Positions 482 through 33,644 of a DNA stretch of 36,675 nucleotides are shown here, piece by piece. The stretch spans positions 1 to 36,675 of IMG/VR virus record IMGVR_UViG_3300035042_000056; one strand, given 5' to 3'. This DNA comes from a virus. Position 1 is the first letter of the stretch. Each line of letters opens with the position of its first letter. The notes beneath the pieces were generated by a model. That model did no database searches. It was not told the DNA's origin and worked only from the letters and a program-made list of their open reading frames with translations. Both the position numbers and the translations under genes were made by a program.

Positions 482-703
482 ATGAAACCAGTGATAGTGA
501 ATGGGAATGTTGATCAGGTAACTAAAGATGATATGGCAGATTTGATTAAGAGCGTGAAGCGGGAAAATGAAGGTAAAAGAATTAAACTTGCTGGCCCGGT
601 CATTGAAACAGCGCTGGAAAGTGCTAATTATACAGACTTTGAGATAGACCTTAGCGAAAGCTTTAAAGAAATCAGGTTGGAAATTAAAGTGAGAGGTGCT
701 TAA
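482..703 (+). CDS. Hypothetical early protein (73 aa)
   Basis: ATG 7 nt after an AAGGAG at 469-474; tightly packed with its neighbours. Confidence 0.55.
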   Translation: MKPVIVNGNVDQVTKDDMADLIKSVKRENEGKRIKLAGPVIETALESANYTDFEIDLSESFKEIRLEIKVRGA

Positions 704-704
704 A

Positions 705-1028
705 ATGGCTTGGTCTATGAAGGACGCGATTGAAACTGCAAAGGCTGCAGTTGAATGGAGTGGAGAAAAAGATATATCTTACAGGACCTATAAGCGATAT
801 AAGAAAAAGTTTGGCGGTCCAAGTATAGGATTTATTATGAAAAGAATGAAATGGTCAGAATTCAAAAGCAAATATCTCGGAATTGAAATAATTAGTGCTC
901 AAGAAAGAATGTTAAAGAAACTTGAAGATAATTTTTGCGGTCATTGTAAAGAAAAAGACAGCTGCAAAATCAAACTGGAGAATTGTGATCACTGGGAATA
1001 TTGGAAAAATCAAAGGAATACTGGTTGA
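705..1028 (+). CDS. Hypothetical early protein, Cys/His-rich C-terminus (CGHCKEKDSCKIKLENCDH)
   Basis: The ATG at 705 is 6 nt after GAGAGGTG. The track's GTG at 696 lies inside that RBS. Confidence 0.5.
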   Translation: MAWSMKDAIETAKAAVEWSGEKDISYRTYKRYKKKFGGPSIGFIMKRMKWSEFKSKYLGIEIISAQERMLKKLEDNFCGHCKEKDSCKIKLENCDHWEYWKNQRNTG

Positions 1029-1043
1029 TGTTAGGAGGAACAG

Positions 1044-1253
1044 ATGAAAAAGAAAAAGCAAAACAGATATATTTACAGAGTTCATTTCCAGACAAACGAA
1101 ATGCTAGGCTGGCGGAGAGTGGTCACTAATAAGAAAATGACTCCGGCAAGGAGAGAAAGATTTGGGGGTATTCTGTTTGAAAAATTAAGGTTAGAGTTAG
1201 AGATAACAAAACTTGTAATCACTGATGTTGAATGGATTAACAAAATAGGCTAA
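1044..1253 (+). CDS. Hypothetical protein (69 aa)
   Basis: A TTAGGAGGAACAG RBS directly precedes the ATG. Confidence 0.55.
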   Translation: MKKKKQNRYIYRVHFQTNEMLGWRRVVTNKKMTPARRERFGGILFEKLRLELEITKLVITDVEWINKIG

Positions 1254-1263
1254 GGAGGGTAAC

Positions 1264-1386
1264 ATGAATCTTGAACATATCAAAGAAAAGCTTAGCAAAG
1301 AGAAACCAGGACTGCCAAAGTCAGTAATAGATGAAATTGTCGAGGAGAAGTACAGAAAACTGAAAGAGGAAGAAGATGGACAGTAA
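1264..1386 (+). CDS. Small hypothetical protein (40 aa); absent from the ORF track because it is under 60 aa
   Basis: TAAGGAGGGTAAC RBS, then ATG at 1264; 40 codons read by hand to TAA at 1384-1386. Confidence 0.45.
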   Translation: MNLEHIKEKLSKEKPGLPKSVIDEIVEEKYRKLKEEEDGQ

Positions 1387-1455
1387 AATCGTTTTTTGGA
1401 TATTTGTGATTTGGTTTATAGCGAGGTTTACAAAAATCAAAAGGAGATGAATAAA

Positions 1456-1626
1456 ATGGGTAAAGTATTAACTAGAAAAATTGCTAGAAATAAGTTGAGA
1501 AATAAATATGGGAATAAAGGATTAAATGCCGCTTTTAAAAGATACCAGGGCAGAAAGAAAAGCATGTCCGACGGGGAACAGCGAGGGAAGAACTATTGCG
1601 ATAGAGATTATAGGTTGGTGGAGTAA
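1456..1626 (+). CDS. Small highly basic protein (56 aa)
   Basis: AGGAG at 1442-1446 with 9-nt spacing to the ATG at 1456. The upstream part of the track ORF has no RBS. Confidence 0.5.
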   Translation: MGKVLTRKIARNKLRNKYGNKGLNAAFKRYQGRKKSMSDGEQRGKNYCDRDYRLVE

Positions 1627-1886
1627 TGATTAATTATGAGTGCAAAAGTTGTCGAAAAGAAACTGATCACCGAATTAAAGAAACTGAATTAACAAGTTAT
1701 TCTGATTACAAAATTCTAATTTGCCAGGAATGCGGCGAAAAAGAAATGGTACCAGAAAAAATATTAGAACGCCAAGAAAAGAAAAACGAAAAGCTTGAAA
1801 TGAAAGAAAATAAAGTTGGCCCTGATGGCGGCTTTGATAGAGAAGTAGATCCGGATTGCGAGTCGGGAATCTGCGGGGCGAGATAG
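1626..1886 (+). CDS. Zinc-ribbon protein (CKSC...CQEC)
   Basis: ATGA start/stop overlap with the upstream ORF; two CxxC pairs. Confidence 0.55.
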   Translation: MINYECKSCRKETDHRIKETELTSYSDYKILICQECGEKEMVPEKILERQEKKNEKLEMKENKVGPDGGFDREVDPDCESGICGAR

Positions 1887-1930
1887 GAGAGTAAATCATG
1901 AGGTGGAAACTAAGATAATTTGAACGCTCG

Positions 1931-2077
1931 ATGTTTAAAATCATAGAAGTTATTGACGAAAAGGAAGAAGTTATCAAATGTTTTGTTGCTGATGATATAA
2001 CTTACGGCGAAAAGAAAAAGAAAGCTCAACTGATGGCAGCTGCACCTGAGTTGTTGGAGGCACTCAAACAAAGCTAA
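1931..2077 (+). CDS. Small hypothetical protein (48 aa); not in the ORF track
   Basis: Hand translation gives MFKIIEVIDEKEEVIKCFVADDITYGEKKKKAQLMAAAPELLEALKQS. It fills an otherwise empty gap, but the RBS is weak. Confidence 0.35.
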   Translation: MFKIIEVIDEKEEVIKCFVADDITYGEKKKKAQLMAAAPELLEALKQS

Positions 2078-2092
2078 AGGAGCTGACGAACA

Positions 2093-2305
2093 ATGAAATC
2101 AAGCAGTGATTTAGCATTAGAGAAAATAGAAATTAAAAAACAGCGAGACGAATTGCTAGATGTTGCAAAATATAGTTTGAAAATAGTTAAAAATCTTGAG
2201 TGTGAGTGTGATCCTTACAATGGATTTACATGTAAGAAACATGAATGGGAAAGAAAATTGAGGTTAGCAATTAATAAAGCCGAAGGCAGCAATCAAGATG
2301 GGTAA
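2093..2305 (+). CDS. Hypothetical protein (70 aa)
   Basis: AAAGGAG RBS upstream; overlaps the next ORF in operon style. Confidence 0.55.
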   Translation: MKSSSDLALEKIEIKKQRDELLDVAKYSLKIVKNLECECDPYNGFTCKKHEWERKLRLAINKAEGSNQDG

Positions 2306-2642
2306 GTATATAGAAATGCTTTTGTATATGCAGGATGATACCCAGTGGTGCGAGCCGGAGTCTCAGGAAGAAATAGAAAAGAATATGGATATTTTCGAAA
2401 AATCTAAAATGGCTAGAAGAAAAAGGAGAGGGTTGATGATGGCAAATTATATGGAGAAAATTTTATTTGATGATGAAGAATATCAGCCAAAAGAATTTTC
2501 AAAAGATGATATAATCCACGATATTATGTTAGCTGGTTTAGAAAAAATAGCTCAATCAGATTCTCACGAAAAAGCAGTTAAAATAGCAGAAGAAAGATTG
2601 GAAAAGGTTAGAGCAATTAGAGAAAAAGGAGCTGATGAATGA
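2298..2642 (+). CDS. Hypothetical protein (114 aa)
   Basis: Overlapping start and stop with neighbours; coding-like composition. Confidence 0.55.
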   Translation: MGKYIEMLLYMQDDTQWCEPESQEEIEKNMDIFEKSKMARRKRRGLMMANYMEKILFDDEEYQPKEFSKDDIIHDIMLAGLEKIAQSDSHEKAVKIAEERLEKVRAIREKGADE

Positions 2643-3304
2643 TGGCTAGGGGAAGATTGTGGACTGATAAAGAAGAAAAACAATTAATCAGACTTTATCC
2701 CAATTATTCAAATAAAAGATTATCTAAAATATTTAATAGAACTGTAACTGCAATTCAGCATAAGGCTAATAGATTAAAAATAAATAAATCTAAAGAATAT
2801 CTAAAGGAAAGTAAGTCAGAAAGGTTTAGTGGTTCAGGTGGGGCTAATTGGAACGGTGGTGTTCACTATACTGGGAAAGGGTATAAAATGATTTATTCGC
2901 CTGATCATCCAAATTCGACAACAAGAGGTTATGTAATGGAACATAGATTAGTTATGGAAGAAAATTTAGGGAGATTATTAAAAGATGATGAAATCGTACA
3001 CCATAAAAACGAAATAAAAGATGATAATAGAATAGAAAATTTGCAGTTAATGAAATTTGGTGAACATACTGCCAAGCATAACAAACAAAGAGTTTTATCA
3101 GCATCAACCAAAAATAAAATGAGTAAAGCTGCTAAAAAAAGATTTTCTAACCCGATTAATCACCCAAGTTATAAAGATATCGACCCCGAAGAATTATTAA
3201 AAATGAGAGGAGAAGGAAAAACCGTTAAAGAAATCTGTGAGATTAAAGGTATTTGCAAAAGAACTTTTTATAACAAAATTAATGATTATGAGGAGAGTGC
3301 TTAA
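2639..3304 (+). CDS. Free-standing HNH homing endonuclease with an N-terminal Myb/SANT-like helix-turn-helix
   Basis: GYVMEHRLVMEENLGRLLKDDEIVHHKNEIKDDNRIENLQLMKFGEHTAKH is an HNH_3-type core. The N-terminal WTDKEEKQLIRLY...TAIQHKANRL is Myb-like. Confidence 0.75.
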   Translation: MMARGRLWTDKEEKQLIRLYPNYSNKRLSKIFNRTVTAIQHKANRLKINKSKEYLKESKSERFSGSGGANWNGGVHYTGKGYKMIYSPDHPNSTTRGYVMEHRLVMEENLGRLLKDDEIVHHKNEIKDDNRIENLQLMKFGEHTAKHNKQRVLSASTKNKMSKAAKKRFSNPINHPSYKDIDPEELLKMRGEGKTVKEICEIKGICKRTFYNKINDYEESA

Positions 3305-3816
3305 TGTTAAATCGTATTGTTTTAATTGGAAGACTTACTAAAGATCCTTCGCTCCGCTATACAGAAAATGGTACTCCAGTCTGTAATTTCACACTGGCAG
3401 TAGAAAGAAATTATAGCGGCAAAAAAGGGGATAAGCCAGTCGATTTCATTAACATAGTCACCTGGAGAGGCCTGGCTGAAAATTGTGCCAGGCATCTGGG
3501 TAAAGGAAGGCTTGTCGGAGTAGATGGCAGCCTGCAGATTAGAAAGAGTGAAAATAACAATAGAACTTATATTAATCCGGAAGTAAATGCAGATAATGTC
3601 CGATTCTTAGACTTTGCAAACAATAACAATCAGAGAAATAATTCACAAGCTAAAGGAAATAAGCAGCAAAGTAAAACCCAGGGACCGGGCCAGCATTCTA
3701 ACGGCCAGCACTCTAAGAATAATAGCCAGCAATCTAATAGCAAAAACAACGGCCGGCAAGTAAATGAACAGTATAACGATAACTTTGAGGGGGATGATTT
3801 CGATGTTCCGTTCTAA
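3304..3816 (+). CDS. ssb: Single-stranded DNA-binding protein
   Basis: MLNRIVLIGRLTKDPSLRYTENGTPVCNFTLAV OB-fold N-terminus, an N/Q-rich linker and an acidic C-terminal tip DDFDVPF. Confidence 0.9.
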   Translation: MLNRIVLIGRLTKDPSLRYTENGTPVCNFTLAVERNYSGKKGDKPVDFINIVTWRGLAENCARHLGKGRLVGVDGSLQIRKSENNNRTYINPEVNADNVRFLDFANNNNQRNNSQAKGNKQQSKTQGPGQHSNGQHSKNNSQQSNSKNNGRQVNEQYNDNFEGDDFDVPF

Positions 3817-4042
3817 GCAAAACCCAAAACCAATATATATAGTGCTAGATTATCAAAAAAGAGCCGGTGAAAAACCAGTAATATATTCTATGGGAATAGT
3901 AAAAGCTGGAAATTCCTATAAAGCAAAAATTAAGTATGCGAAAAGAATAGATAAAAAAGAATGTGAAGCTGCTAGATTTACAACTGTTAGGCCAGAAGAG
4001 GTAGGTTTTGTATCTCTTTGGGATTTAAAAAATCCGAATTAA
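3794..4042 (+). CDS. Hypothetical protein (start at 3794 or 3803)
   Basis: GAGGGGG at 3787-3793 precedes in-frame ATGs at 3794 and 3803. Overlaps the ssb 3' end. Confidence 0.5.
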   Translation: MISMFRSKQNPKPIYIVLDYQKRAGEKPVIYSMGIVKAGNSYKAKIKYAKRIDKKECEAARFTTVRPEEVGFVSLWDLKNPN

Positions 4043-4057
4043 ATAGAAGGTGTTGGA

Positions 4058-4189
4058 ATGAACTCAAAAGTAATCAGAAAAAAGTTTGGAATACTTATCA
4101 TAGACGGAATCAAAATGAGGTCACCGACAACAATAGAGCATGATCGACCGGGCCAGCTAAAAATAATCTATATACCAGAAAAAGTTTAA
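4058..4189 (+). CDS. Small hypothetical protein (43 aa); not in the ORF track
   Basis: AGAAGGTG RBS, ATG at 4058, 44 codons counted to TAA at 4187-4189. Contains one CCGGGCCA motif copy. Confidence 0.4.
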   Translation: MNSKVIRKKFGILIIDGIKMRSPTTIEHDRPGQLKIIYIPEKV

Positions 4190-4306
4190 GAATTTTTGTG
4201 CCCGGCATTGGAGGATTGGAGCAATAAAAAATGTTTACTTTCTCTAATTCTAACAGTTGAGTGGGCTCCAACTAGACATTGCTCCAATTTTCCAGAAAGG
4301 AGGCAG

Positions 4307-4567
4307 ATGAAAGATTATTATATTTGCGAGATAGATGGATGTGAGGAACAAATCAGAAAAGGAACGCTTTGCCACTATCACAGCTCAATAACTAACCGGC
4401 CATGTGCCTGGTATTATCATAAAGAACTAGGGACAGCTGCAGTTGAGTGGTGTGATAAGAAAGTAGAAAGGTTTGATGATGTTAACTGCGAAGGATGTAA
4501 AGACTATATAGATCCGAAAGATGGAATAAAAATAATTGAGAGACTAACTGGCCTTAATCAAGGGTGA
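4307..4567 (+). CDS. Cys/His-rich small protein (86 aa)
   Basis: AAAGGAGGCAG RBS, then ATG at 4307. The track's TTG at 4196 adds an RBS-less hydrophobic extension. Motifs: CEIDGCEE...CHYH...CEGC. Confidence 0.55.
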   Translation: MKDYYICEIDGCEEQIRKGTLCHYHSSITNRPCAWYYHKELGTAAVEWCDKKVERFDDVNCEGCKDYIDPKDGIKIIERLTGLNQG

Positions 4568-4597
4568 TGGCCCGGGCCAGCAGGAAGGAGCAGAGAA

Positions 4598-4753
4598 ATG
4601 AAGAAATGCCCTGAATGTGGAGTAATGTATGCAGAAGAAGATGGTAGAGGAGGTGTCTGCCGTAGATGTTATGAAAGACAGCAAACTGGAAGTATGGAAA
4701 AAGACATGAGTTGGTTTGCCCAACGAGCGGGCCAGCCTGAAAAGAAATTTTAA
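4598..4753 (+). CDS. Zinc-ribbon miniprotein (51 aa); not in the ORF track
   Basis: AGGAAGGAG RBS, then ATG at 4598; CPEC...CRRC; TAA at 4751-4753. Confidence 0.5.
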   Translation: MKKCPECGVMYAEEDGRGGVCRRCYERQQTGSMEKDMSWFAQRAGQPEKKF

Positions 4754-4857
4754 GCTAACTGGAAGCTAAGACCTTAAGAACTTAAGATCTTCCCCCGGCC
4801 GGTCTTGAACTGAGGTCTTATTAAACAGAGAGCGATATATTAGAGGGTGAAAATTAA

Positions 4858-5022
4858 ATGAGCAAAATCAAGAAAAGAATACCTTGCCCAAATCCATATT
4901 GTGATCCAGAAGAAGGTTGTTGTATTTGTGAATATACAAATCATATCTATGTATTTGTAGAAAATAAAGATGATGAAGTAAAATTTAATTTTGATGTTGA
5001 AGGAGGCAGAAATGATATTTAG
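4858..5022 (+). CDS. Cys-rich miniprotein (54 aa); not in the ORF track
   Basis: AGAGGGTGA RBS, ATG at 4858. CPNPYCDPEEGCCIC motif. TAG at 5020-5022 overlaps the next start. Confidence 0.45.
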   Translation: MSKIKKRIPCPNPYCDPEEGCCICEYTNHIYVFVENKDDEVKFNFDVEGGRNDI

Positions 5023-5845
5023 ATGCAGCTTAAAAAAATGGAAGACTAGAAAAAACTCAGGAGTAGTAAGCCTGATCATAAAAGATATACCAGATGGATT
5101 TGATAAATTTGAAGATAAACCATTAATTGTGAACTTCAATCAGATGGCCCTGGCCTCAGCTAAAATCAAAAATATAGAACAGTTGGCTAATGGAGATCAT
5201 GAAGTTATATTGATAACTGGGAAAGACAGTAAAAGGATTTTGATTAATGTTGGACCAAAATTCAAAGAGATGGAAGAAATCAGAGTAAAGTTTGAAATAA
5301 ATAAAAAAGAGCAGCAAAGGTTAATGAATATGATAACTAACAGTCAGAGAAATAAAGCATTTGCTGTCATTGAAGATATGGGTAACTCAATAGGGTATGA
5401 AAAGGAAGAAATGAAAGAGGCTCTGGTTATGAGGTTTGCTGAGGTCTCTGAGCATGGAAGAATAAGTTTATCCGATTGTTCTAAGAAAGCAGCAATTGAT
5501 TTTATAGATTTTGCGATAAGGCTAGGTTATGAGCTGGGAGTAGAGTGGAAAGAAAACCCCAGGAAGAGATTAGACAGTCTGGATAGATGGCTAAGAATGT
5601 GCCTGGATAAGAAAATATGTGCTGTCAGTACTAAGCCAGGCAAAAACTATTATATAGACAATTCAGGTGAAATAGTTCATGTTCACCATGCAGATGCAAT
5701 TGGCATGGGGCAAAATAGACAAAAGCTAGATGATAGTAATCTAAAGAAAATATGTTTATCAGCTGAATATCACAATATAGCTCATAAGATGGGCTGGAAA
5801 TCATTTAAGAAAAAATATCATGTCGAGGCTATTGTTTATCCGTGA
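5012..5845 (+). CDS. Putative nuclease with a C-terminal HNHc-like His/Cys motif
   Basis: GAAGGAGGCAGA RBS, then ATG at 5012. The C-terminal VHVHHADAIGMGQNRQKLDD...CLSAEYHNIAHKMGWKSF resembles the phage 'putative HNHc nuclease' family. Confidence 0.5.
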   Translation: MIFRCSLKKWKTRKNSGVVSLIIKDIPDGFDKFEDKPLIVNFNQMALASAKIKNIEQLANGDHEVILITGKDSKRILINVGPKFKEMEEIRVKFEINKKEQQRLMNMITNSQRNKAFAVIEDMGNSIGYEKEEMKEALVMRFAEVSEHGRISLSDCSKKAAIDFIDFAIRLGYELGVEWKENPRKRLDSLDRWLRMCLDKKICAVSTKPGKNYYIDNSGEIVHVHHADAIGMGQNRQKLDDSNLKKICLSAEYHNIAHKMGWKSFKKKYHVEAIVYP

Positions 5846-5872
5846 TGGCCCGGGCAATTGGAGGTGAAAATA

Positions 5873-6226
5873 ATGGAGAAGTTTGGATTTGTAGTCGCAG
5901 GCAGACCAGTACCAGCTCAGCGAATGACTCAAAAGTCTAAGTGGACTAAAAGAGCTAAAAAGAGTCTGGCATATCAAAGAGATATAGCATGGATGTGGAA
6001 AAGGGCATCTAATGGTGAAAAACTCAAAGGTGATTTAAAATTAAGTTGTGAATTCTATTTCAATGACAAAAGGCATGGAGACCTAAGTAATCTGGTTAAA
6101 GCAGTTGAAGATGGGCTGCAGTATGCAAATGCTTTTGACAATGATAAGCAGATTAAGAGATACGGCAAAACTGGAATATTTTTTGATGATGAACCGAGAG
6201 CTGTAATTAGAATAGAAGAAATTTAG
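5873..6226 (+). CDS. rusA: RusA-family Holliday junction resolvase
   Basis: GGAGGTG RBS, then ATG at 5873. AGRPVPAQRMTQKSKW...GDLSNLVKAVEDGLQYANAFDNDKQI matches the RusA signature. Confidence 0.8.
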   Translation: MEKFGFVVAGRPVPAQRMTQKSKWTKRAKKSLAYQRDIAWMWKRASNGEKLKGDLKLSCEFYFNDKRHGDLSNLVKAVEDGLQYANAFDNDKQIKRYGKTGIFFDDEPRAVIRIEEI

Positions 6227-6268
6227 GGTGCTGGCCCGGTAATTAGAAAAAGAAAGGGGTTAATTATA

Positions 6269-6583
6269 ATGAATAGAAGCGAAATGTTATGTTTTTTAGA
6301 GGAACTGCTGGAAGAATCGGCAAAAATGAGTCATAAAACTGGCAAATCATTTTTGGAGGAGGGAATTGATGAACTGCAGGACAGGTTGGTTGCGGAAGAC
6401 TATAATAGCAAGCCGATTAGTAATTTAGTTGTCAGAGTGAATGCTGATACTTCAGAAGCTATGACCGAACTGGTTCAAATTGAAAGCAAATTAGAGAAAA
6501 TTAATCAGCTTTTAGAAGAAATCAATGGTAAGTTTAAAAATGAAAATACTATAAAAATAGGAGTTGAAGTTAATGGGCGATAG
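6269..6583 (+). CDS. Hypothetical protein (104 aa)
   Basis: AAAGGGG RBS; acidic, helical composition. Confidence 0.55.
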   Translation: MNRSEMLCFLEELLEESAKMSHKTGKSFLEEGIDELQDRLVAEDYNSKPISNLVVRVNADTSEAMTELVQIESKLEKINQLLEEINGKFKNENTIKIGVEVNGR

Positions 6584-7031
6584 AAATAAAGGTGCTGGCC
6601 CGGGGACCGGGAAAGAATTTCAAGAAAATATGATTGATAAGCTTTTAGATGAAACTAAGGAAATGAAAATATCTAAAGAAACTAAAATGGTTTTAAAAGA
6701 AATAATGACTAAAAAAACTTGCTTAAAGCAATTAGATAGAATTATTAACGAAATTGAAACAATCCATAGAGGCAGACCATCTGAAAAGTTTTACTTTTTG
6801 CAGGCTTCTTTATTGTTTGCTAAAAAAAATCTTGAAGAAAATACATTTCAATATAGCTTAGAAGATAAAGTGAAAATAATAAAAGATGGTCACTTTAAAG
6901 GGAAAACAGGGAAAATAATAAAAAGGCGCTTATCAAACTCTGCTACCAACAATTACATCCATTATAAATTAGATAGCATGGAACATTATTGGATATTAGA
7001 AGATAATTTAGAGGTGGTTGAGTATGCTTGA
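6573..7031 (+). CDS. Hypothetical protein (start uncertain: 6573 or 6630)
   Basis: AGGAG at 6559-6563 sits 9 nt before the ATG at 6573. An alternative ATG at 6630 would leave the GC motif at 6591-6603 intergenic. Confidence 0.5.
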   Translation: MGDRNKGAGPGTGKEFQENMIDKLLDETKEMKISKETKMVLKEIMTKKTCLKQLDRIINEIETIHRGRPSEKFYFLQASLLFAKKNLEENTFQYSLEDKVKIIKDGHFKGKTGKIIKRRLSNSATNNYIHYKLDSMEHYWILEDNLEVVEYA

Positions 7032-7272
7032 CGAAGCCAGAAAAATATGCAAATATCAAGGAATTAAAACCCATATTCAAGTGCCGGTTATTTGCCCTCA
7101 CTGTAGCCGGAGAACAATGATATTAGACAGTGTTAAGAATAAAGGCACTTGCATTAGGTGTGGAAGAGAAAAGCCTATCAATGAGCTTTTGAGGGAAGAG
7201 GAAGCAGACTGGCTGGAAAGGCATAAAGGAACAGATATAAAAATGAGGACTAACAGGGGTGATTGCGGTTGA
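7024..7272 (+). CDS. Zinc-ribbon protein (CPHC...CIRC)
   Basis: GAGGTGG RBS 6 nt before the ATG at 7024. Confidence 0.55.
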   Translation: MLDEARKICKYQGIKTHIQVPVICPHCSRRTMILDSVKNKGTCIRCGREKPINELLREEEADWLERHKGTDIKMRTNRGDCG

Positions 7273-7563: not shown

Positions 7564-8001
7564 ATGCAAGACTACTATTCGAGAGTGGTCAAAGAGTTAC
7601 TTAACTACAAAGAATATAAACAGAGATGCGCTGTAATCAGAATAGAATTAGATGAATTAATCGAGTCAAATCGAGGGGTAAGTTATGAAGGAGTGAACGT
7701 TAAAGGCAGCAATGATTTTAGATCAGCTACAGAAAATGCAGTTATTAATCGGGATGAAAGCGAGCTCAAAGAAGAATTAAAAAGTAAAGAATGTATGATA
7801 GCCAAAATTGAAGAAGCTCTTGAAGGTTTATATACAATGGAAAGATTTGTAGTGGAAAAAAAATATATGAATGGGACTATTGAGAAAGATGTGAACATAT
7901 ATACTCACCCAAAATTTGAGTGGGGAAGAAACAAATATTATGATTTTAAAGACCAGGCAATAGAAAAAATAGCAAGAATTCTCGGATATGCAAAAAAATA
8001 A
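7564..8001 (+). CDS. ArpU/RinA-like late-gene transcriptional activator (sigma-region-4-like)
   Basis: About 145 aa and the last early gene before the packaging module. The pattern MQDYYSRVVKELLNYKEYK...VVEKKYMNG...AIEKIARILG resembles the ArpU family. The call rests on position and pattern only. Confidence 0.5.
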   Translation: MQDYYSRVVKELLNYKEYKQRCAVIRIELDELIESNRGVSYEGVNVKGSNDFRSATENAVINRDESELKEELKSKECMIAKIEEALEGLYTMERFVVEKKYMNGTIEKDVNIYTHPKFEWGRNKYYDFKDQAIEKIARILGYAKK

Positions 8002-8025: not shown

Positions 8026-8259
8026 ATTTAAAGCTTTAAAAGATGATATATTAATATCATGGAAAGTATAAGATTTTTTCAATAACTTTCCTCCTTTATT
8101 GTTTTACCCGGCTTGCCACCAGACGAGCTGGGTTTTTCTATGCCACAAACTAATAATTACAGAAATCGTTGTGGGCGTCTGTTGTTACCTCCATATTATA
8201 ATATACTGCTGCCGGCCAGCCCAGCCGGTTTATATTACATATTTGCCAGAGGTGATTTG

Positions 8260-8454
8260 ATGCCGGCTATTATTAGAGGCGATAAAACATGCAGCAAGTG
8301 CGAAAGTAAATATTTCTCTAAGAACGCTACTAAAGATATGAATAAGCATAATCTTTGCTTTGATTGCATACTTGCCTATCATAGATATATTTTTGCTGAT
8401 GATAATGACATAATTAGCCTGGAGGAATGGAAAGATGGCAAAGGAATGGGCTAA
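8260..8454 (+). CDS. Zinc-ribbon miniprotein (64 aa)
   Basis: AGAGGTGA RBS, then ATG at 8260; CSKC...CFDC. The track's upstream 49 codons cover a structured non-coding leader. Confidence 0.5.
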   Translation: MPAIIRGDKTCSKCESKYFSKNATKDMNKHNLCFDCILAYHRYIFADDNDIISLEEWKDGKGMG

Positions 8455-8749
8455 AAGTTTTTATAAGAGTAAAGAATGGCAGGAGTGTAGAGAGGCTTAT
8501 ATCGCAGAAGTGAATGGACTGTGCGAGAGATGCCTGGAGAATGACAAGGTTAATCCTGGGAAGATAGTTCATCACATTGAATACTTAACTCCTGACAACA
8601 TTAATGATCCAGAGATTACTCTTAACTTTGATAACTTAGAATACCTGTGCTTAGACTGCCATAACGAGGAACATGGAGTAGGAGCGAGTGCAGAGGTAGT
8701 TAGACAAGGGTTGAAGTTTAATGAGCATGGAGAGCTGGTTGAAAGGTAG
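8435..8749 (+). CDS. HNH endonuclease (terminase-associated type)
   Basis: IVHHIEYLTPDNINDPEITLNFDNLEYLCLDCHNEEH. Located immediately upstream of terS/terL, as in HK97-like cos phages. Confidence 0.8.
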   Translation: MAKEWAKSFYKSKEWQECREAYIAEVNGLCERCLENDKVNPGKIVHHIEYLTPDNINDPEITLNFDNLEYLCLDCHNEEHGVGASAEVVRQGLKFNEHGELVER

Positions 8750-8844
8750 CCCCCCCTGTTTTTATCGGGGTGGTGGCTGCCAGGGGACCGAGAGGGGATA
8801 CACAATTAATACATATCAAGCTCACGAGGGGGGTGTGGTATAAA
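8750..8844. other. Candidate cos / packaging-recognition region
   Basis: A 95-bp non-coding GC-rich island in an AT-rich genome between the HNH gene and terS. It has a C7 run (8750-8756), GGGG runs, and a G6 run (8828-8833). Confidence 0.4.
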
Positions 8845-9234
8845 ATGTCAAATACAGCAGCTAAAAATAACGAGTTTTTAGAAAAAGATAGGCGAGTTAA
8901 AGAAGAAAAAGAAAGATTAAGAGCAATTTTAGAAGATTTAGATATAGATAGCCAGAGAATGGATATAGCAAAGTCATTAATTGCAAATGCAGCATTTATG
9001 GCCATAACTCTCCAGGACTTGCAGGATGAAATCAATGCTAATGGAGTTGTATCAAAGTATCAGAATGGAGAAAACCAATGGGGTACTAAACAATCTCCAG
9101 AAGCAAGCACCTATATTTCATTAGTTAATAGACATAATGCTGTTATGAAGCAATTGCTTGACTTGTTGCCAAAAGAAGAAGTTACTAATCCCGAAAATAT
9201 TATAGAAAAGTTTGAAGCATCGAGGCCTGATTAA
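8845..9234 (+). CDS. terS: Terminase small subunit (P27-family-like)
   Basis: The ATG at 8845 follows GAGGGGGG. NGVVSKYQNGENQWGTKQSPEASTYISLVNRHNAVMKQL is P27-like. Directly precedes terL. Confidence 0.7.
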   Translation: MSNTAAKNNEFLEKDRRVKEEKERLRAILEDLDIDSQRMDIAKSLIANAAFMAITLQDLQDEINANGVVSKYQNGENQWGTKQSPEASTYISLVNRHNAVMKQLLDLLPKEEVTNPENIIEKFEASRPD

Positions 9235-9236
9235 AG

Positions 9237-11066
9237 ATGATAGTTAGATGCTCAGGAACTAAAAACGATGGCAGCAGATGCAGCAGAGAAAAAGAATTTA
9301 ATGATAATCCACCAAATGAGTGGAGATGTTGGCAGCACCCTAAAAAAACAAAAGAAAAAACTAAGAAAAACAACAGTAATTATATAAGATATCCTTTGAG
9401 TTATAATCCAATCATTGAATATAATAATAAAATTCAATCTGGCGAAATAATAGCCTGCAAAAAAGTTAAAAAAGTTTATAAAAAACTTGTAGCTGATGTT
9501 CATGACGATCAAAGCCAGTGGGAGTATAGTGCCGGCCACGCTAATCATGCAATTGAGTTTATAGAAAATTTTTGCAAACAATCAAAAGGTAAATGGGGAG
9601 GCCAGGCGCTTAAATTAGAACTCTGGCAGAAGGCTTTTATAGCAGCTATTTTTGGGTTTATTCATAAAACTAACAGAACAAGAAAATATAGAGAAGTATT
9701 ATTAGTCGTTGCCAGAAAGAATGGAAAATCAACTCTTTCATCGGCGATTTCTTTATATCTTCAAGTTGCCGATAATGAACCAGGGGCCGAAATATATGCG
9801 GTTGCTACAAAAGAAAAACAGGCCAAAATAGTATGGTCAGAAGCTAAGAAAATGGTTAAAAAATCACCATTCTTACTGAAAAGCATTAAACCTTTGGTTA
9901 AAGAATTAAAGGGCCGACATAATGATTCAACTTTTGTGCCTCTCGGGTCTGACAGCGATAGATTAGACGGGCTCAATGTGCATGGAGCCTCTCTTGATGA
10001 GATACACGCATGGAAAGACAAGAACCTTTACGATGTTATCAAAGACGGTACATCAGCAAGAGAACAACCTTTAATATTTATGATCACAACTGCTGGGACT
10101 GTTAGAGAGCAAGTTTACGACCTAAAGTATGATGAAGCAGAAATGATTATTAATGGATTTGATGATCCAGAAGGTTATAAAGACGAAAGATTTTTACCAA
10201 TTATTTATGAGTTAGACAAAAGGTCCGAATGGACTGACAGAAAAAACTGGAGAAAAGCTAATCCAGGGCTTGGTACTATTAAGAAAAGAGATAATTTAGA
10301 AACCAAAGTTCATAAAGCGCAAAATAATCCATTGCTGGTTAAGAATCTATTGACTAAAGACTTTAATATCAGAGAAACATCATCTGAAGCATGGTTGAAC
10401 TTTGAAGAATTAAATAATACAGCCACTTTTGATGTTGAGGAGTTAAAGCCGCGTTATGGGATAGGCGGAACTGATCTTTCTGAAACGACTGATTTAACTG
10501 CAGCGAGCGTTCTTTTCATGCTCCCTGGCGACAGCCAAATATATGCTTTGTCAATGTATTGGCTACCTGAAGACTTGTTAGAACAAAGATCGCGCGAAGA
10601 TAAAATTCCATATAACGCTTGGTACAAACAAGGCTTATTAAGAACAACACCAGGTAATAAAATACATCCTAAATTTGTCACACAATGGTTTTTAGAAGTT
10701 CAAAATAAATTAGATATATATATACCTTGGGTTGGTTATGATGCATGGTCAGCTCGGTACTGGGTTGAAGAAATGGAGGGATATTTCGGGAAAGAAGCCA
10801 TGATTAAAGTTCATCAAGGCAAAAAAACTTTGTCAGGACCAATGAAGCAATTAGGAGCCGACCTAAAAGCTAACAAAATAAATTATAACAATCATCCAAC
10901 AACTAAATGGTGCTTAAGTAATACTTCAGTAGATATTGATAAAAATCTTAATATTCAGCCGGCTAAACAGCGAAATCAAAGAAAAAGAATAGATGGTACA
11001 GCTGCTATGCTTGACGCTTATGTAATTTTACAAGAAAAAATGCAAGATTATAAGAATATGATTTAG
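9237..11066 (+). CDS. terL: Terminase large subunit (Terminase_1 type) with an N-terminal extension of about 55 aa
   Basis: Walker A-like VVARKNGKST, a DEIH box and a C-terminal nuclease region; 609 aa. Confidence 0.9.
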   Translation: MIVRCSGTKNDGSRCSREKEFNDNPPNEWRCWQHPKKTKEKTKKNNSNYIRYPLSYNPIIEYNNKIQSGEIIACKKVKKVYKKLVADVHDDQSQWEYSAGHANHAIEFIENFCKQSKGKWGGQALKLELWQKAFIAAIFGFIHKTNRTRKYREVLLVVARKNGKSTLSSAISLYLQVADNEPGAEIYAVATKEKQAKIVWSEAKKMVKKSPFLLKSIKPLVKELKGRHNDSTFVPLGSDSDRLDGLNVHGASLDEIHAWKDKNLYDVIKDGTSAREQPLIFMITTAGTVREQVYDLKYDEAEMIINGFDDPEGYKDERFLPIIYELDKRSEWTDRKNWRKANPGLGTIKKRDNLETKVHKAQNNPLLVKNLLTKDFNIRETSSEAWLNFEELNNTATFDVEELKPRYGIGGTDLSETTDLTAASVLFMLPGDSQIYALSMYWLPEDLLEQRSREDKIPYNAWYKQGLLRTTPGNKIHPKFVTQWFLEVQNKLDIYIPWVGYDAWSARYWVEEMEGYFGKEAMIKVHQGKKTLSGPMKQLGADLKANKINYNNHPTTKWCLSNTSVDIDKNLNIQPAKQRNQRKRIDGTAAMLDAYVILQEKMQDYKNMI

Positions 11067-25630: not shown

Positions 25631-25942
25631 ATGAGAGGTTTTCCAAAAGTGCTTAATTCAAGACAGGATTATGAAAATGTGATTAATGACTTTGGCTACA
25701 CACCAAAAGTAAAAAGAGCATACCAGGGGCTGCTAAATACAGCCAAAAAGTATGAGTTTGACAAAGAACTTGCAGCAGAATCTGATAGAACTGGCCCGGA
25801 GCCTGAGTACAAAGTTATGACTCAGGAAGAAGATGGAACAGAAAAGATAGTGCAGTTCAAACTTGTTGATAACCCAAACGGGAAAATATTTAGGTTAGGG
25901 TTCACTATTGATGAAGTCCAGGAGGTGATTGATCAATGTTAA
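25631..25942 (+). CDS. Hypothetical protein (103 aa), fibre-associated by position
   Basis: Translationally coupled on both sides; contains one TGGCCCGG copy. Confidence 0.4.
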   Translation: MRGFPKVLNSRQDYENVINDFGYTPKVKRAYQGLLNTAKKYEFDKELAAESDRTGPEPEYKVMTQEEDGTEKIVQFKLVDNPNGKIFRLGFTIDEVQEVIDQC

Positions 25943-26973
25943 CTTTTGTTGGAGCTGATTCACCTTCATTTTTCAACTTCAAAGGACATATTGAAAAGAG
26001 TGCAGCTGATGAAATTGCAGTGCCGCCTTTGGCATTAAGAATTGACAGGCAGAATCTCAAAAAAGAAACTGATACTATTTTGACTGCAGCAGATAATGAC
26101 GGAAGTTTTGCGAGCTTCACTCTTGGTGAAAACTATTATGTGTATGCACTGCAGTCAGCTGATGGTGCTGAGCCAGAATTTGCAGTTTCAATCAATTCTA
26201 CTTATCCAGACGGTTACACAGAAAATAATTCGAGAAAGATAGGCGGCTTTCATTATGGACGTATCAGAACAAATGCTCAAAGATATGATGATGCAGCCTC
26301 AATTGCAGTCAATATAATTCCTAATTCAGTCTGGTCATTGAACTACAGACCTGCCTGTGACCCGACCGGAATGGTCAAAGTTTCAAACTTCTGGGCTGAT
26401 ATTTATCTTGCCAGTGAAGGCAGCGGCACCTGGCCGGAGACTGAACTTGTGAGTGAATATAACGCAACACCAGTCTCGGGAACTGAAGGTTATAATGATT
26501 ATGATTTCATTAGAGGGCTTGCAAATGTCAACAAAAGAAAATTAACTGGCCAAGAATGGGATATGGCTGCTTACGGAAGTCCCGAAGGCCATGATGGTGA
26601 TAACAATGCCGCCTGGTCTGCAACAAGCAACTCAGGCAGAACAGCAACTGGAACTGTAGAACAAGCGGTTTCCTGCTATAATCTTGTTGATTGTGCAGGT
26701 AACCTTTGGGAAAGAATAGATGAATATATGTATAGATATGCAGGCACTTCTTCATTTGACTGGCATGATGTTCTTAACATGGGAAAAGACAGCAGTTATC
26801 AGCATGGAGAAGCATATATGCAGGGAAATCCTTCTATTGTGGTCCTCCTCGCTGGTGGCAACTTCGGCAATGGCGGTAGTTGTGGTTCTCGGGCGGTCTA
26901 CTCGTACGGTTACCCGTGGTACGTGAACACTACCTTTGGCGTGCGTGGCGCCTGTGATCATCAGTCAGCCTGA
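25936..26973 (+). CDS. DGR target: receptor-binding tail-fibre protein with a C-type-lectin / FGE-like fold and a C-terminal variable region
   Basis: CAGNLWERIDEY (GNxWEW-like) plus the C-terminal GGNFGNGGSCGSRAVYSYGYPWYVNTTFGVRGAC scaffold. The last ~41 codons form the VR that pairs with the TR at 27393-27515. Confidence 0.85.
   Translation: MLTFVGADSPSFFNFKGHIEKSAADEIAVPPLALRIDRQNLKKETDTILTAADNDGSFASFTLGENYYVYALQSADGAEPEFAVSINSTYPDGYTENNSRKIGGFHYGRIRTNAQRYDDAASIAVNIIPNSVWSLNYRPACDPTGMVKVSNFWADIYLASEGSGTWPETELVSEYNATPVSGTEGYNDYDFIRGLANVNKRKLTGQEWDMAAYGSPEGHDGDNNAAWSATSNSGRTATGTVEQAVSCYNLVDCAGNLWERIDEYMYRYAGTSSFDWHDVLNMGKDSSYQHGEAYMQGNPSIVVLLAGGNFGNGGSCGSRAVYSYGYPWYVNTTFGVRGACDHQSA
26840..26962 (+). 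repeat. DGR variable repeat (VR)
   Basis: Aligns without gaps to 27393-27515 at an offset of 553. There are 15 mismatches, 14 of them at TR adenines. Confidence 0.9.
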
Positions 26974-27023: not shown

Positions 27024-27371
27024 TTGGCGGATCCGGAAGACTTAGATATATATCAAAAACATTATGATTTTATGTGTTATTTTTTCCCGGTGGTTGATAA
27101 CTTTCCAAAGTACGAAAAATTTGTTCTTTGCACCAGCATAAAAAATATAACACTTAAAATATTTGACTTAATAATAGAAGCTAATGAAACTTATGGTAGT
27201 AAATTGAGGTTTCTTAATAGAATAGATTTGCAGCTTAAAAAATTAAAATTGCAGGTTAGATTTGCAAGAGATATGACTCATTTATCACCGAGAAAACATG
27301 AAATTGTAGTCAAAAAAATAGACGAAATTGGGCGGCTTTTAGGCGGCTGGATTAAGTCTTGTAAAAAATAA
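27024..27371 (+). CDS. avd: Accessory variability determinant (Avd; four-helix-bundle protein)
   Basis: 115 aa between VR and TR. TTG start 7 nt after GAAGGAG. YQKHYDFMCYFFPVVDNFPKYEKFVLCTSIKNITLKIFDLIIEAN matches the four-helix-bundle/Avd pattern. Confidence 0.75.
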   Translation: MADPEDLDIYQKHYDFMCYFFPVVDNFPKYEKFVLCTSIKNITLKIFDLIIEANETYGSKLRFLNRIDLQLKKLKLQVRFARDMTHLSPRKHEIVVKKIDEIGRLLGGWIKSCKK

Positions 27372-27766: not shown

Positions 27767-28858
27767 TTGTTTGAAAAAATAACTGACTATCATAAATTAG
27801 AGGAAGCAACAAAAAATGCTCAGAAAAGAAAACGATATAAACCGGAAGTATTAAAATTTAATTATAATTTAGAAAGAAATCTTATAGAAATACAAAATGA
27901 GTTAATCTGGAAAACATATAAACAGGGAGAATACAGGCAGTTTTATGTTTATGAGCCAAAGAAAAGATTGATCATGGCGCTCCCTTTCAGAGACAGAGTA
28001 GTTCAATGGAGCATCTATCAGACTCTTTATCCAATATTCGATAGAACATTCTACAGATACAGCTGTGCCTGCAGAAGGAAGAAGGGAACTCACTTTGCTG
28101 CATATCAGCTGCAGGATAAGATAAAGATAATGGATCGAAAGCCTGGCAAAACATATTTTCTCAAAGCTGACGTGTCAAAATATTTTTATCGCATAGTTCA
28201 TAAAAGATTATTTCAGTTAATCAAAAGGAAAATCAGCTGCAGAAATACATTAGAATTAATCTGGCAGATTATTAAAAGTGAAGATGGTGAATTTGGTATT
28301 CAGCTGGGTGATCACTTCTTTGAAAATAAGAAAGTCAAAGGAATTGGCACACCGATCGGTAATTTAATGAGCCAACTTTTTGCTAATATTTATCTTGACT
28401 TTCTCGATAAATTTGTAAAGCATACTCTGGGAGTCAAATATTATATTCGTTATATGGATGACTTCGTGCTTTTGGGCAAAGACAAAAAGAACCTTCACAC
28501 TATCAGGCAAGAAATAGAAATTTTTCTTGACGATTATCTCCAACTGCAGCTTAATAATAAAACTACTGTTGGTCATGTAAGTGAGGGAATTGATTTTTGC
28601 GGATATGTTTTATATCCGAGTTATAGTAATTTAAGAAAATCTACTAAAAAGAAAATGAAAAAGAGGTTCAAATATCTCAACAAAAAGTATTTTGAAGGGA
28701 AGGTGGATATTGAAGATATTAATGCAAGTGTTAATTCCTATTTAGGAATAATTAAGCACTGCGATAGTTATAATTTAAAAATGTCAGTAATAAGCAAGTT
28801 AGATGATCATATACTTGAACAGTTGGATTTAGGAGACCGGTTTAGATTAAAAAGTTGA
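27767..28858 (+). CDS. DGR reverse transcriptase
   Basis: PKKRLIMALPFRDRVVQ (motifs 1-2), GTPIGNLMSQLFANIYL (DGR-diagnostic IGNxxSQ) and YIRYMDDFVLLG (YMDD). There is no maturase or endonuclease domain. TTG is the first canonical start. Confidence 0.9.
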   Translation: MFEKITDYHKLEEATKNAQKRKRYKPEVLKFNYNLERNLIEIQNELIWKTYKQGEYRQFYVYEPKKRLIMALPFRDRVVQWSIYQTLYPIFDRTFYRYSCACRRKKGTHFAAYQLQDKIKIMDRKPGKTYFLKADVSKYFYRIVHKRLFQLIKRKISCRNTLELIWQIIKSEDGEFGIQLGDHFFENKKVKGIGTPIGNLMSQLFANIYLDFLDKFVKHTLGVKYYIRYMDDFVLLGKDKKNLHTIRQEIEIFLDDYLQLQLNNKTTVGHVSEGIDFCGYVLYPSYSNLRKSTKKKMKKRFKYLNKKYFEGKVDIEDINASVNSYLGIIKHCDSYNLKMSVISKLDDHILEQLDLGDRFRLKS

Positions 28859-30557: not shown

Positions 30558-30591
30558 ACCTCCAGACAAAATGCCTGGAGGTCTTTTTTTA
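30558..30591 (+). terminator. Rho-independent terminator of the late/lysis operon
   Basis: ACCTCCAG / CTGGAGGT form a perfect 8-bp stem with a 9-nt loop, followed by CTTTTTTTATTT. Confidence 0.75.
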
Positions 30592-30833
30592 TTTATAGAG
30601 AACTATATAAAGAGAGAATCCTGCACAAATCCTGCACCCAATCAGTTAACATATGTTAATATAATGAATTTGGAAAGAAAATAAAAACCCTATAATCTCC
30701 GTTATATCGTAGATTGGTTAATATTTGTTAATAATAGTAATTTGTACTCGCATAACATGTGATTGTGCGCATAAAATAACTAAAGTATTAATATAACAGG
30801 GATTATAGGGAATGGTCAGTGCAAAATCCTGCA
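30592..30833. other. Candidate attP region
   Basis: A non-coding ~240 bp adjacent to int, dense in direct and inverted repeats (see the repeat features and the attP finding). Confidence 0.45.
30617..30637 (+). repeat. Tandem pair AATCCTGCAC-N-AATCCTGCAC (distal)
   Basis: Exact copies at 30617-30626 and 30628-30637. Confidence 0.9.
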
Positions 30834-30845
30834 CTAATCCTGCAC
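30825..30845 (+). repeat. Tandem pair AATCCTGCAC-N-AATCCTGCAC (int-proximal; overlaps the int stop codon)
   Basis: Exact copies at 30825-30834 and 30836-30845, in the same orientation as the distal pair 208 bp away. Confidence 0.9.
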
Positions 30846-33599: not shown

Positions 33600-33644
33600 T
33601 TTTTTGCGCAAAGGTTCGTAAATAGTGAATATAGGAGGTAAAAA

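Follow-up and report, generated by a model that had tools for sequence, protein, structure and literature searches.

The 36,675-nucleotide stretch of viral DNA considered here (IMG/VR record IMGVR_UViG_3300035042_000056, positions 1 to 36,675; called the window below) is the genome of a temperate siphophage, circular and 36.5 kb long. The GC-rich word TGGCCCGG is present in it in ten exact copies, nine of them within the early operon. Because the word is strict, shows a partial dyad, is used in both orientations, is selected through synonymous codons and is placed where a GC-rich word is tolerated, it is very probably a site on double-stranded DNA (dsDNA) that a protein recognizes. Our preferred reading, to which we assign a probability of roughly 35%, is that a phage-encoded early protein tied to recombination or replication reads this site. 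That a protein binds, that the phage encodes it, which protein it is and what binding would do are parts of this reading that we infer from sequence comparisons.

Enrichment of the word in the early operon

The window is a circular assembly, its bases 1–127 being repeated exactly at 36549–36675 (a 127-bp terminal duplication). After removal of the overlap the genome has 36,548 bp and a G+C content of 34.9%. The copies at 35881 and 592 are therefore neighbors. The early transcription unit extends from ~33.3 kb via the circle junction to ~8.1 kb and makes up 11.4 kb, or 31% of the genome.

The first-pass annotation, made by eye, had listed ten exact copies, and all of them were recovered, on the plus strand at 592, 4568, 5846, 6232, 6596, 25792 and 35881 and on the minus strand at 3685, 4148 and 4572. 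The suspected enrichment held in dinucleotide-preserving shuffles, which averaged 0.09 copies on both strands and never exceeded 1, compared with the 10 observed (~100-fold). Among the 8-mers of the window, the word ranks first in enrichment, and GCTGGCCCGG occurs 6 times against 0.007 expected. The concentration at gene boundaries of the early region was borne out as well (9 of the 10 exact copies in the early operon, binomial ~2e-4), as was the use of GC-rich codons that are atypical for this genome. The sites are, in the order of the circular genome:

35881–35888, plus strand: exact copy within the early gene 35654–36208, read as GGT GGC CCG GAT (G-G-P-D).
592–599, plus strand: exact copy in the middle of the gene 482–703 for a 73-amino-acid protein, read as GCT GGC CCG GTC (A-G-P-V).
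3685–3692, minus strand: exact copy in the part of the SSB gene for the C-terminal tail, read as CCG GGC CAG (P-G-Q).
4148–4155, minus strand: exact copy 34 nt ahead of the stop of the open reading frame (ORF) 4058–4189 of 43 amino acids.
4568–4579: perfect 12-bp palindrome TGGCCCGGGCCA, formed by two overlapping exact copies (4568 plus, 4572 minus).
4727–4734, minus strand: one-mismatch copy TGGCCCGC, 17 nt before the stop of ORF 4598–4753.
5145–5152, plus strand: one-mismatch form TGGCCCTG within the HNHc_6 gene; the same kind of form lies at 1817 and 25524.
5846–5853, plus strand: exact copy touching the TGA of the HNHc_6 gene 5012–5845, 19 nt before the RusA ATG (5873).
6232–6239, plus strand: exact copy 5 nt past the RusA stop, 29 nt before the ATG at 6269.
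6596–6603, plus strand: exact copy in codons 8–11 of the gene 6573–7031 (G-A-G-P-G), 12 nt after the stop of the gene 6269–6583.
25792–25799, plus strand: sole exact copy of the late region, in the gene 25631–25942 upstream of the target gene of a diversity-generating retroelement (DGR), in the GGC CCG frame.

The palindrome and the near-copy at 4727–4734 had both been noted in the first-pass annotation and were confirmed. The palindrome lies between the TGA of a gene for a Cys-rich protein (4307–4567) and the ribosome-binding site (RBS) and ATG (4598) of the next gene. The four stop codons associated with the word were likewise found as described, at 4565–4567, 5843–5845, 6224–6226 and 6581–6583. 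Four genes do end at the motif, but they are not strictly consecutive, as ORFs 4598–4753 and 4858–5022 intervene after the first. The word also follows the stop at 6581–6583, yet the copy at 6596 lies inside the next gene, which starts with the ATG at 6573. The sequence CCCGGGCAATTGGAGG, regarded as a parallel to another near-copy, is present but placed at 5849–5864 instead of 5850–5865.

A target of restriction-modification or of another DNA modification (methyltransferase, phosphorothioation, defense) had been among the roles first proposed. The exact short word does contain GGCC, CCGG and CCCGG sub-sites. However, GGCC (76 times) and CCGG (60 times) occur throughout the genome with no sign of avoidance, and no methyltransferase turned up in those early genes that were scanned. 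Phage genomes are normally poor in restriction targets, the opposite of the 100-fold enrichment here, and we consider this role extremely unlikely.

Conservation of the sites in related phages

We distinguish group 1 (the window phage and close relatives), group 2 (phages with a lambda-type GpA terminase) and group 3 (a co-occurring third group from the same metagenomes). In relatives the motif is kept and positioned, with 7–15 copies per 7–21 kb compared with 0.03–0.10 expected. Every early copy is kept in contigs from IMG/VR, JGI, ENA and Logan that are 90–100% identical in the shared parts, and copies stay exact where the flanks drop to 70–80% identity or lose homology. In locus L089, 11 copies fall within 8.3 kb of early DNA, and the 9.2 kb ahead of it are free of the word. 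L105 is a prophage of Halanaerobium salsuginis ATCC 51327 (the locus examined ends inside the prophage) with an HNHc_6 97% identical to that of the window and 10 exact copies in 7.5 kb. In L103, where HNHc_6 is 81% identical and the structural module a different one, 9 copies stand against 0.10 expected. Group 2, with HNHc_6 55–57% identical, has 7–15 copies per locus compared with 0.06–0.09 expected. Almost no copies are present in the late and lysogeny DNA (20–25 kb) of group 1 and L103.

No copy was found in phages that are related by TerL (72–78%) or by the prohead protease (46%). Sporohalobacter salinus and Orenia, from other genera of the Halanaerobiales, each harbor a prophage that is among the closest relatives by TerL, and neither prophage has the motif; TerL is also 75% identical to that of Bacillus cereus-group phages. 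For the integrase, the nearest named relatives come from Frackibacter and Halanaerobaculum. A blastn search with the early region against 50,697 phage records gave only trivial SSB and HNH matches, and an integrase scan of genome contigs gave no match. Look-ups of exact proteins (integrase, attP-proximal gene, antirepressor homolog) led only to free circular phage contigs.

Scanning IMG/VR with CTGGCCCGGGCCAG returned, among the matches listed, mostly GC-rich phages and re-found only group 2, while a scan with GATGGCCCGGGCAAT revealed group 3. In several early genes, phages of this third group are 67–85% identical to group 1 at the nucleotide level, but they have one copy in ~14 kb. This copy follows a relic of the last 19 HNHc_6 codons and a TGA, and is itself followed by an RBS and a VRR-NUC gene. 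In L324 (reverse strand, 9850–10491), and also in L284, L297 and L310, the 19 codons are fused behind an unrelated gene. The relic is a recombination scar and shows the VRR-NUC cassette to have travelled together with its upstream junction. The host assignment of group 3 is a putative one, drawn from co-occurrence and shared sequence.

Individual sites come and go. The site at 25524 is TGGCCCTG in the window but exact in L095, so sites in the late region turn over. At four group 2 positions, L104 has TGGCCCTG or TGGTCCGG where L118–L123 have exact copies; sites are therefore gained and lost by point mutation.

A separate observation concerns an imperfect hairpin, TGGCTCGGgctcaatgtCCGGGCCA, in group 2 (L104 13966–13990, with homologs in L118–L124). 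It is intergenic, between a sigma-70_r4-like late activator gene and TerS, near the presumed cos site, and its arms are one degenerate and one exact copy of the motif.

Selection on the nucleotide sequence

Among diverged homologous copies, 27 of 34 are intact, whereas a core evolving at the pace of its flanks would be expected to leave 14.7; of the seven copies counted as lost, two are alignment artifacts, and the 34 are not phylogenetically independent. The copy at 35881 is intact in homologs with flanks only 74–80% identical, and the copy at 3685 where flank identity drops to 78–80%. At 592, the site is intact in group 1 relatives and reads TGGCCCGA in L103. There, the Gly-Pro pair is encoded by GGC-CCG in group 1 but by the usual AT-rich codons GGA-CCA in group 2. 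Within the window, GGCCCG makes up 6 of the 20 Gly-Pro codon pairs compared with 1.0 expected (P = 3e-4). These comparisons indicate that selection on the nucleotide sequence itself maintains the motif.

The possibility that all copies stem from a duplicated protein segment, raised in the first-pass annotation, failed on inspection: the protein contexts are unrelated, which excludes it, and at one site homologs differ by synonymous codons only. The forward coding copies in the window, four in number, are framed xxT GGC CCG Gxx and the reverse ones CCG GGC CAx. The statement that the word is always read as GP or as PGQ/AGQ thus holds for the window but not for relatives, in which a conserved copy uses another frame (ATG GCC CGG in a DUF5651 gene). 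The sites are placed where an AT-rich, tightly packed operon tolerates a GC-rich word, namely in gaps of 20–40 nt between stop and RBS or in Gly-Pro and Pro-Gly-Gln codons.

Anatomy and orientation of the sites

Allowing up to one mismatch, the window holds 19 sites compared with 4.8 expected; variants are only ~2-fold enriched, in contrast to the ~100-fold of the exact word. Strictness of this degree suits a reader of the enzyme type more than an ordinary degenerate operator.

We pooled all copies over genomes and clustered them by flank similarity, yielding 42 independent positions. At these, G is found at position −2 in 76%, C or A at −1 and C at +9 in 60%; G at +8 and C at +10 are enriched too. 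The fuller form, G-[C/A]-TGGCCCGG-N-C, is a partial version of the 12-bp palindrome TGGCCCGGGCCA, and the flank preferences correspond to a relaxed second half of TGGCCC–GGGCCA. We refer to GCTGGCCCGGGC as the 12-mer form of the site and to TGGCCCGGGCCA as its palindromic form. Perfect palindromes occur at 3 independent positions compared with ~0.06 expected from base composition, and independent ones recur in group 2. The one-mismatch form TGGCCCGC seen at 4727 was also found in L103 and L105.

Non-palindromic independent sites run along transcription in 27 cases and are reversed in 10 (27%; p = 0.008), a strand bias compatible with strand-specific action. About half of the sites lie between a stop codon (often with the TGA touching the core) and the next RBS, in both orientations and 11–43 nt ahead of the start codon; the rest are intragenic. 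Reverse copies directly upstream of an RBS are found in L103 (9180 and 9567) and L105 (8537) and have forward counterparts in the window (5846 and 6232). For example, L103 has CCGGGCCAGCAGGAGG..ATG and the window TGGCCCGGGCAATTGGAGG..ATG, opposite orientations in the same place between stop and RBS. Since both orientations stand directly upstream of an RBS, DNA rather than RNA is indicated.

This bears on a signal in the early polycistronic mRNA, acting in processing or translational coupling, as had also been suggested, or in pairing of an sRNA or rRNA near the RBS. Roughly half of the sites lie 11–30 nt upstream of a start codon, and the sense strand is favored, as such a signal would predict. 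Reverse-complement copies nevertheless occupy the same stop-to-RBS place, 10 of 37 non-palindromic sites being antisense, and mid-gene copies have no start codon nearby. Six local folds had z-scores from −1.7 to +1.0 and shared no structure, and no Rfam family matched at the gathering threshold in the whole window. We therefore disfavor an RNA-level role and regard it as very unlikely.

Several further candidates were rejected. Promoter and terminator matches were at chance level and did not coincide with the sites, a sigma-54 promoter would lack its −12 element, and replication iterons do not agree with sites spread over 11 kb, none of them in the DnaD-like initiator gene. The word also has a 7-nt match to 16S rRNA, in what we take to be a buried helix, and the match is probably due to chance.

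Sites at mosaic junctions and cassette ends

Motif density peaks around SSB–HNHc_6–RusA/VRR-NUC, and a number of the differences between relatives fall at the sites in this part. The motif follows just after the HNHc_6 stop in every lineage examined (the window, L103, L104, L105, L120 and L341), with different flanks in group 2. This site, 5846 in the window, is a junction at which RusA, VRR-NUC or an extra cassette alternate. A VRR-NUC gene takes the place of RusA between the copies equivalent to 5846 and 6232, and L341 has the uninterrupted simple form HNHc_6–motif–VRR-NUC. In L004 and L089 an extra ORF of 79 codons follows HNHc_6, with direct repeats ATTGTTTATCCKTGATGGCCCGG containing the motif at both ends. 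The inserted segment is bounded on both sides by ATTGTTTATCC[T/G]TGATGGCCCGG and contains, as a scar, the initial 15 nt of RusA. Homology to these two loci restarts 27 nt upstream of 6232, and directly after this site L003 has a deletion. Between the copies equivalent to 6232 and 6596, L003 carries a different gene. In L105 the copy at 6596 centers a 68-bp island of homology, and the gene upstream is swapped in L003 and L009.

The palindrome and the copy at 4148 mark similar points. L095 and L099 part from the window immediately after the palindrome (GGGCCAG), and L099 loses homology downstream of the motif equivalent to 4148. The H. salsuginis prophage L105 has an insert of ~360 bp beside the palindrome, bounded by direct repeats [C/G]GGGCCAGCAG.

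Such junctions could arise with a passive linker that has no dedicated reader: a GC-rich microhomology at cassette ends would spread because cassettes carrying it recombine more easily into genomes carrying it, much as with the boundary sequences of lambdoid phages or the PeSL-driven shuffling of T4-type phages (PMC2839356). Identity islands at mosaic junctions, motif-containing repeats at the flanks of inserted cassettes and the same HNHc_6 3′ end plus motif before RusA, VRR-NUC or an ORFan in different genomes all agree with this model. But mid-gene copies away from junctions (592, 35881, 3685, L005 784 and the DUF5651 copy) are conserved or created synonymously, junctions are equally common at motif-less boundaries, and neither flank preferences nor palindromes are expected from microhomology alone. 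Eight base pairs are also short for homologous exchange. We judge a purely passive linker to be rather improbable. The first-pass proposal of a boundary sequence for modular recombination is supported in part: it agrees with the homology islands at junctions and the cassette flanks, but not with the many motif-less junctions or with the selection on mid-gene copies.

A host or a phage reader

A Chi-type reading would assign the word to the host, in which an AddAB/RecBCD-type nuclease of Halanaerobium or another DNA-tracking enzyme reads it. The phages would then gather the word near their cos-proximal right end in the active orientation, halting degradation and stimulating recombination. The core, a strict asymmetric GC-rich 8-mer, suits this idea. 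It is found in two or more phage lineages whose structural modules are unrelated, one close relative being an H. salsuginis prophage, and is absent from the Sporohalobacter and Orenia relatives as well as from TerL and protease relatives elsewhere. Sites change by point mutation while their density is kept, recombination junctions adjoin them, and the 27:10 bias faces the presumed right end, the four sites nearest to HNH-TerS-TerL all being on the plus strand. In addition, no Gam-like or SSAP gene was found among the early products scanned against Pfam and PHROGs.

Other observations make a Chi-type site doubtful. Group 3 comes from the same samples and recombines with group 1, yet it has one copy in ~14 kb. 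Instead of a comparable density across regions, the late and lysogeny DNA of group 1 and L103 is nearly empty, and in group 1 no reverse-facing copies guard the left end. The flank preferences and excess palindromes suit a dimeric dsDNA binder better than a Chi site read on a single strand. Moreover, known Chi densities are far below one per 0.4–1 kb. We prefer a phage-encoded reader to a host-wide one on three grounds: in group 1 and L103 the sites are confined to the early operon, group 3 is almost devoid of them, and a set of genes co-occurs with the motif.

Candidate reader proteins

Wherever the locus extends far enough, all motif-rich genomes (the window, L089, L103, L105 and group 2) carry a common set of five early genes, which group 3 and the prophages of Sporohalobacter and Orenia lack. 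With window genes named by a W and their coordinates, these are W482-703, SSB, W4307-4567, HNHc_6 and W7018-7272. The L095 locus ends before HNHc_6 and W7018-7272.

482–703, plus strand: 73-amino-acid early protein, co-occurring, no family match.
3304–3816, plus strand: SSB, part of the early recombination/replication module.
4307–4567, plus strand: 86-amino-acid Cys-rich protein (CxxxxC...CHxH), co-occurring, candidate binder; its stop adjoins the palindrome.
5012–5845, plus strand: HNHc_6 (His-Me finger) nuclease, Pfam PF16784 (3e-17), co-occurring, candidate reader.
7018–7272, plus strand: 84-amino-acid zinc-ribbon protein with weak Zn-ribbon matches below threshold, co-occurring, candidate binder.

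The Cys-rich protein had no match in Pfam, PHROG or PDB. In staphylococcal phages, HNHc_6 is part of SSAP-SSB-HNHc_6-rep recombination modules (PMC8093625).

A role in recombination or replication is our first choice because of the clustering at SSB–HNHc_6–RusA/VRR-NUC and the cassette repeats bounded by the motif. In the mechanism we propose, the reader would be encoded in the same early operon, with the five co-occurring genes as candidates. Its binding or nicking at the sites would create entry points for recombination or replication in early-region DNA, and as a by-product the sites would become places of exchange and duplication for gene cassettes. The phages in which selection keeps the site in the early operon form a recombining temperate pool, and its only cultured host is H. 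salsuginis.

A number of points weigh against this proposal. Group 2 has ~5 copies in ~14 kb of structural genes, where a function in the early operon predicts none. Many junctions lie at motif-less gene boundaries (1000–3300, 7273 and 7556 in the window), so that the word is not required for mosaicism or module exchange. The predicted structure of HNHc_6 is of moderate quality (pLDDT 74) with a poorly modelled HNH part, and the protein has no informative Foldseek neighbor and no sequence relative in PDB. Few independent lineages underlie the co-occurrence (groups 1, 2 and L103 versus group 3 and two other genera), and the motif-rich set was partly found with HNHc_6 as bait. Finally, a phage that keeps at least ten targets for its own nuclease needs explaining, for instance by nicking, protection or timing.

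A more specific version is a hotspot system of the phage's own, in which HNHc_6, possibly guided by a small Zn-binding protein, would cut or nick TGGCCCGG and start recombination-dependent replication. The word would then be the standard connector for gene exchange across the pool. We put this forward as speculation and think it improbable.

The two small co-occurring metal-binding proteins also allow a stoperator-like operator or roadblock. Here, the Cys-rich or the Zn-ribbon protein, as a dimer or an asymmetric monomer, would bind the sites and damp or stop elongation in the early operon, for example in early-gene shut-off. Sites located in short intergenic gaps or over stops and oriented 27:10 along transcription fit well, as do the partial palindromes with recurrence of perfect ones and the restriction of group 1 sites to the early operon. 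The strongest site, the palindrome, touches the stop of the Cys-rich gene. On the other hand, no copy is present at a promoter-operator, the repeats of the CI/Cro region being AT-rich (GTTCGTAAA type), and the orientation is not exclusive, with reverse copies directly upstream of RBSs. An invariant 8-mer with almost no tolerated variants would be unusual for an operator, group 2 has copies inside terminase and portal genes, and the cassette repeats are left unexplained. This alternative comes not far behind our preferred reading, although we think it somewhat unlikely; it and the Chi-type site are the chief competitors.

Of the operator role first suggested, a protein site is plausible, but a CI/Cro operator is not. 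There is no copy with up to one mismatch between the CI gene (32514–33164) and the cro gene (33363–33599), where the repeats are the AT-rich GTTCGTAAA/TTTACGAAC; with no motif copy in this region, the immunity repressor is not the reader. AT-rich inverted repeats (ATGTTCGT..ACGAACAT and TTTACGAA) are found at 33185–33226 and 33330–33345, between CI and cro, and at 33614–33630, after cro. They are likely operators of CI/Cro or a LexA-like protein and unrelated to the GC-rich motif.

A side observation concerns the Cys-rich gene 4307–4567. L002, otherwise 98–100% identical to the window, lacks 141 bp (4402–4542) inside it, and an overlap of ~10 bp between its blast segments suggests that the deletion arose between short direct repeats.

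Other features of the phage genome

Outside the motif and its candidate readers, the following features were assigned:

30834–32006, minus strand: integrase, lysogeny module.
32514–33164, minus strand: CI-like S24 repressor, lysogeny module.
33363–33599: cro-like gene.
Early operon: Bro-N protein, HTH_17 protein and DnaD-like initiator, the last ending at 477.
2639–3304: free-standing HNH_3 gene, early operon.
5873–6226: RusA, early operon, with the ATG at 5873.
7564–8001: late activator (phrog_36/248).
8106–8133: terminator-like hairpin.
8435–11066: HNH-TerS-TerL.
~25.9–28.9 kb: DGR.

The HNH-TerS-TerL arrangement suggests cos-type packaging. The DGR consists of an Mtd-like target gene (25936–26973; PF21916 in identical relatives), bAvd (27024–27371) and a reverse transcriptase gene (27767–28858). 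The G+C content of this region (~25–28 kb) is 40–42% compared with 35% genome-wide.

The HNH_3 gene sits between the gene 2298–2642 and SSB and resembles HNH genes from phages of Staphylococcus and Rhodococcus, with 70–74% nucleotide identity. It is precisely missing from L004 and L089, whose homology spans 2157–2639 and resumes at 3303, which fits a mobile homing-endonuclease gene. Within the gene for the DnaD-like initiator, a low-complexity AAAGTAAAGGAAAGT repeat (KVKESKVKE...) at 120–200 gives 75% nucleotide matches to genes annotated as recombinase/replication initiation in the Enterococcus phages phiFL2B and phiFL3.

Four copies of AATCCTGCAC at 30620–30850, around the attP region and the 3′ end of the integrase gene, probably act as arm-type binding sites for the integrase; a hairpin resembling a terminator is present at 30560–30590. 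Contigs with an identical integrase or attP-proximal gene all have the free circular arrangement, and some JGI contigs end ~194 bp past the integrase gene, probably at the att core. No tRNA was found, and attP thus gives no clue to the host.

A second over-represented GC-rich palindrome, AGCCGGCT, is located in late and integrase genes at 10957, 21539, 21675 and 31674. For CAGCCGGCTG with up to one mismatch, 4 occurrences were observed against 0.14 expected. GCCGGC is present nine times in the genome, 8 of 9 outside the early region.

Comparison with known systems and implications

To our knowledge, very few groups of phages keep one short word many times by selection at the DNA level, and these involve the stoperators, SAS and PeSL elements. 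As the first-pass annotation had supposed, the element is not described in the literature searched: the word TGGCCCGG appeared only in primers, and papers on Halanaerobium prophages mention no such motif.

Stoperators of Cluster A mycobacteriophages are mostly intergenic or over stops and orientation-biased relative to transcription (PMC9283540). Stoperators of the L5 gp71 type are also alike in being a short word repeated more than 10–20 times per genome and conserved across a cluster of mosaic phages. They differ in sharing their sequence with an early-promoter operator bound by the immunity repressor, whereas none lies in the CI/Cro region here. They are strictly oriented and genome-wide, while here 27% are reversed and sites are limited to the early operon in group 1 and extend to late genes in group 2. 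The motif of these Halanaerobium phages, moreover, has a GC-rich, partly palindromic core.

In T4-type phages, recombination between PeSL copies inserts, deletes and swaps ORFs (PMC2839356, PMC4122927). PeSLs resemble the motif in being repeated at gene boundaries in a plastic, early-expressed part of the genome. As with PeSLs, some insertions, deletions and replacements between relatives are bounded by the motif (L004/L089, L105 and RusA/VRR-NUC), although many others are not. A PeSL, however, is a composite of ~50 bp with a sigma-70 promoter and a terminator stem-loop, in contrast to the word of 8–12 bp here, which has no promoter, terminator or fold and is also intragenic under nucleotide-level selection.

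Chi shares with the motif a strict, asymmetric GC-rich core (5–8 nt), a strand bias, embedding by codon choice and a link to exchange points. It is also specific to a narrow related set, the host genus for Chi and one known host for the motif. The five letters at the start of the extended form (GCTGG) are shared with E. coli Chi (GCTGGTGG), probably by coincidence. Chi sites are defined through their host, by an excess and a strand skew in its chromosome and by recognition through RecBCD/AddAB; the regional restriction of the motif, its rarity in group 3, its flank preferences and its perfect palindromes speak against this reading.

The SAS and ESAS of Cluster K mycobacteriophages, reportedly described by Pope et al. 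in 2011, are said to be a conserved GC-rich word on the 13-bp scale just upstream of some starts. They contain the RBS and have a fixed orientation and spacing, unlike the sites here, which lie 11–43 nt away in both orientations and about half of which are intragenic. Susskind and Botstein, and Clark et al. in 2001, are said to have described boundary or linker sequences in lambdoid phages, short and conserved at mosaic junctions. Those sequences differ from junction to junction, whereas here one word is found at many junctions and inside genes; unlike in that model, most junctions in the window phage are without the motif. The motif resembles stoperators, SAS, PeSLs and Chi, yet for each of these that was open to testing it lacks one or more defining features.

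Stoperators, SAS and PeSLs each revealed an unexpected layer of regulation or genome shuffling. The motif is notable in the same sense, being strict, GC-rich in an AT-rich genome and common to lineages with unrelated structural modules. It is tied to a small set of uncharacterized early genes, including the widespread but unstudied HNHc_6, and offers a directly testable pair of cis and trans elements. Halanaerobium is the dominant bacterium of hydraulically fractured shales. The motif could assign a function to proteins of HNHc_6 modules, or give the Chi-type sequence of an unstudied order. If the hotspot system were true, it would be a phage-encoded analog of Chi or attC, making mosaicism site-directed. 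Either a function for these proteins or a Chi-type sequence would bear on the old question of whether specific boundary sequences help phage mosaicism.

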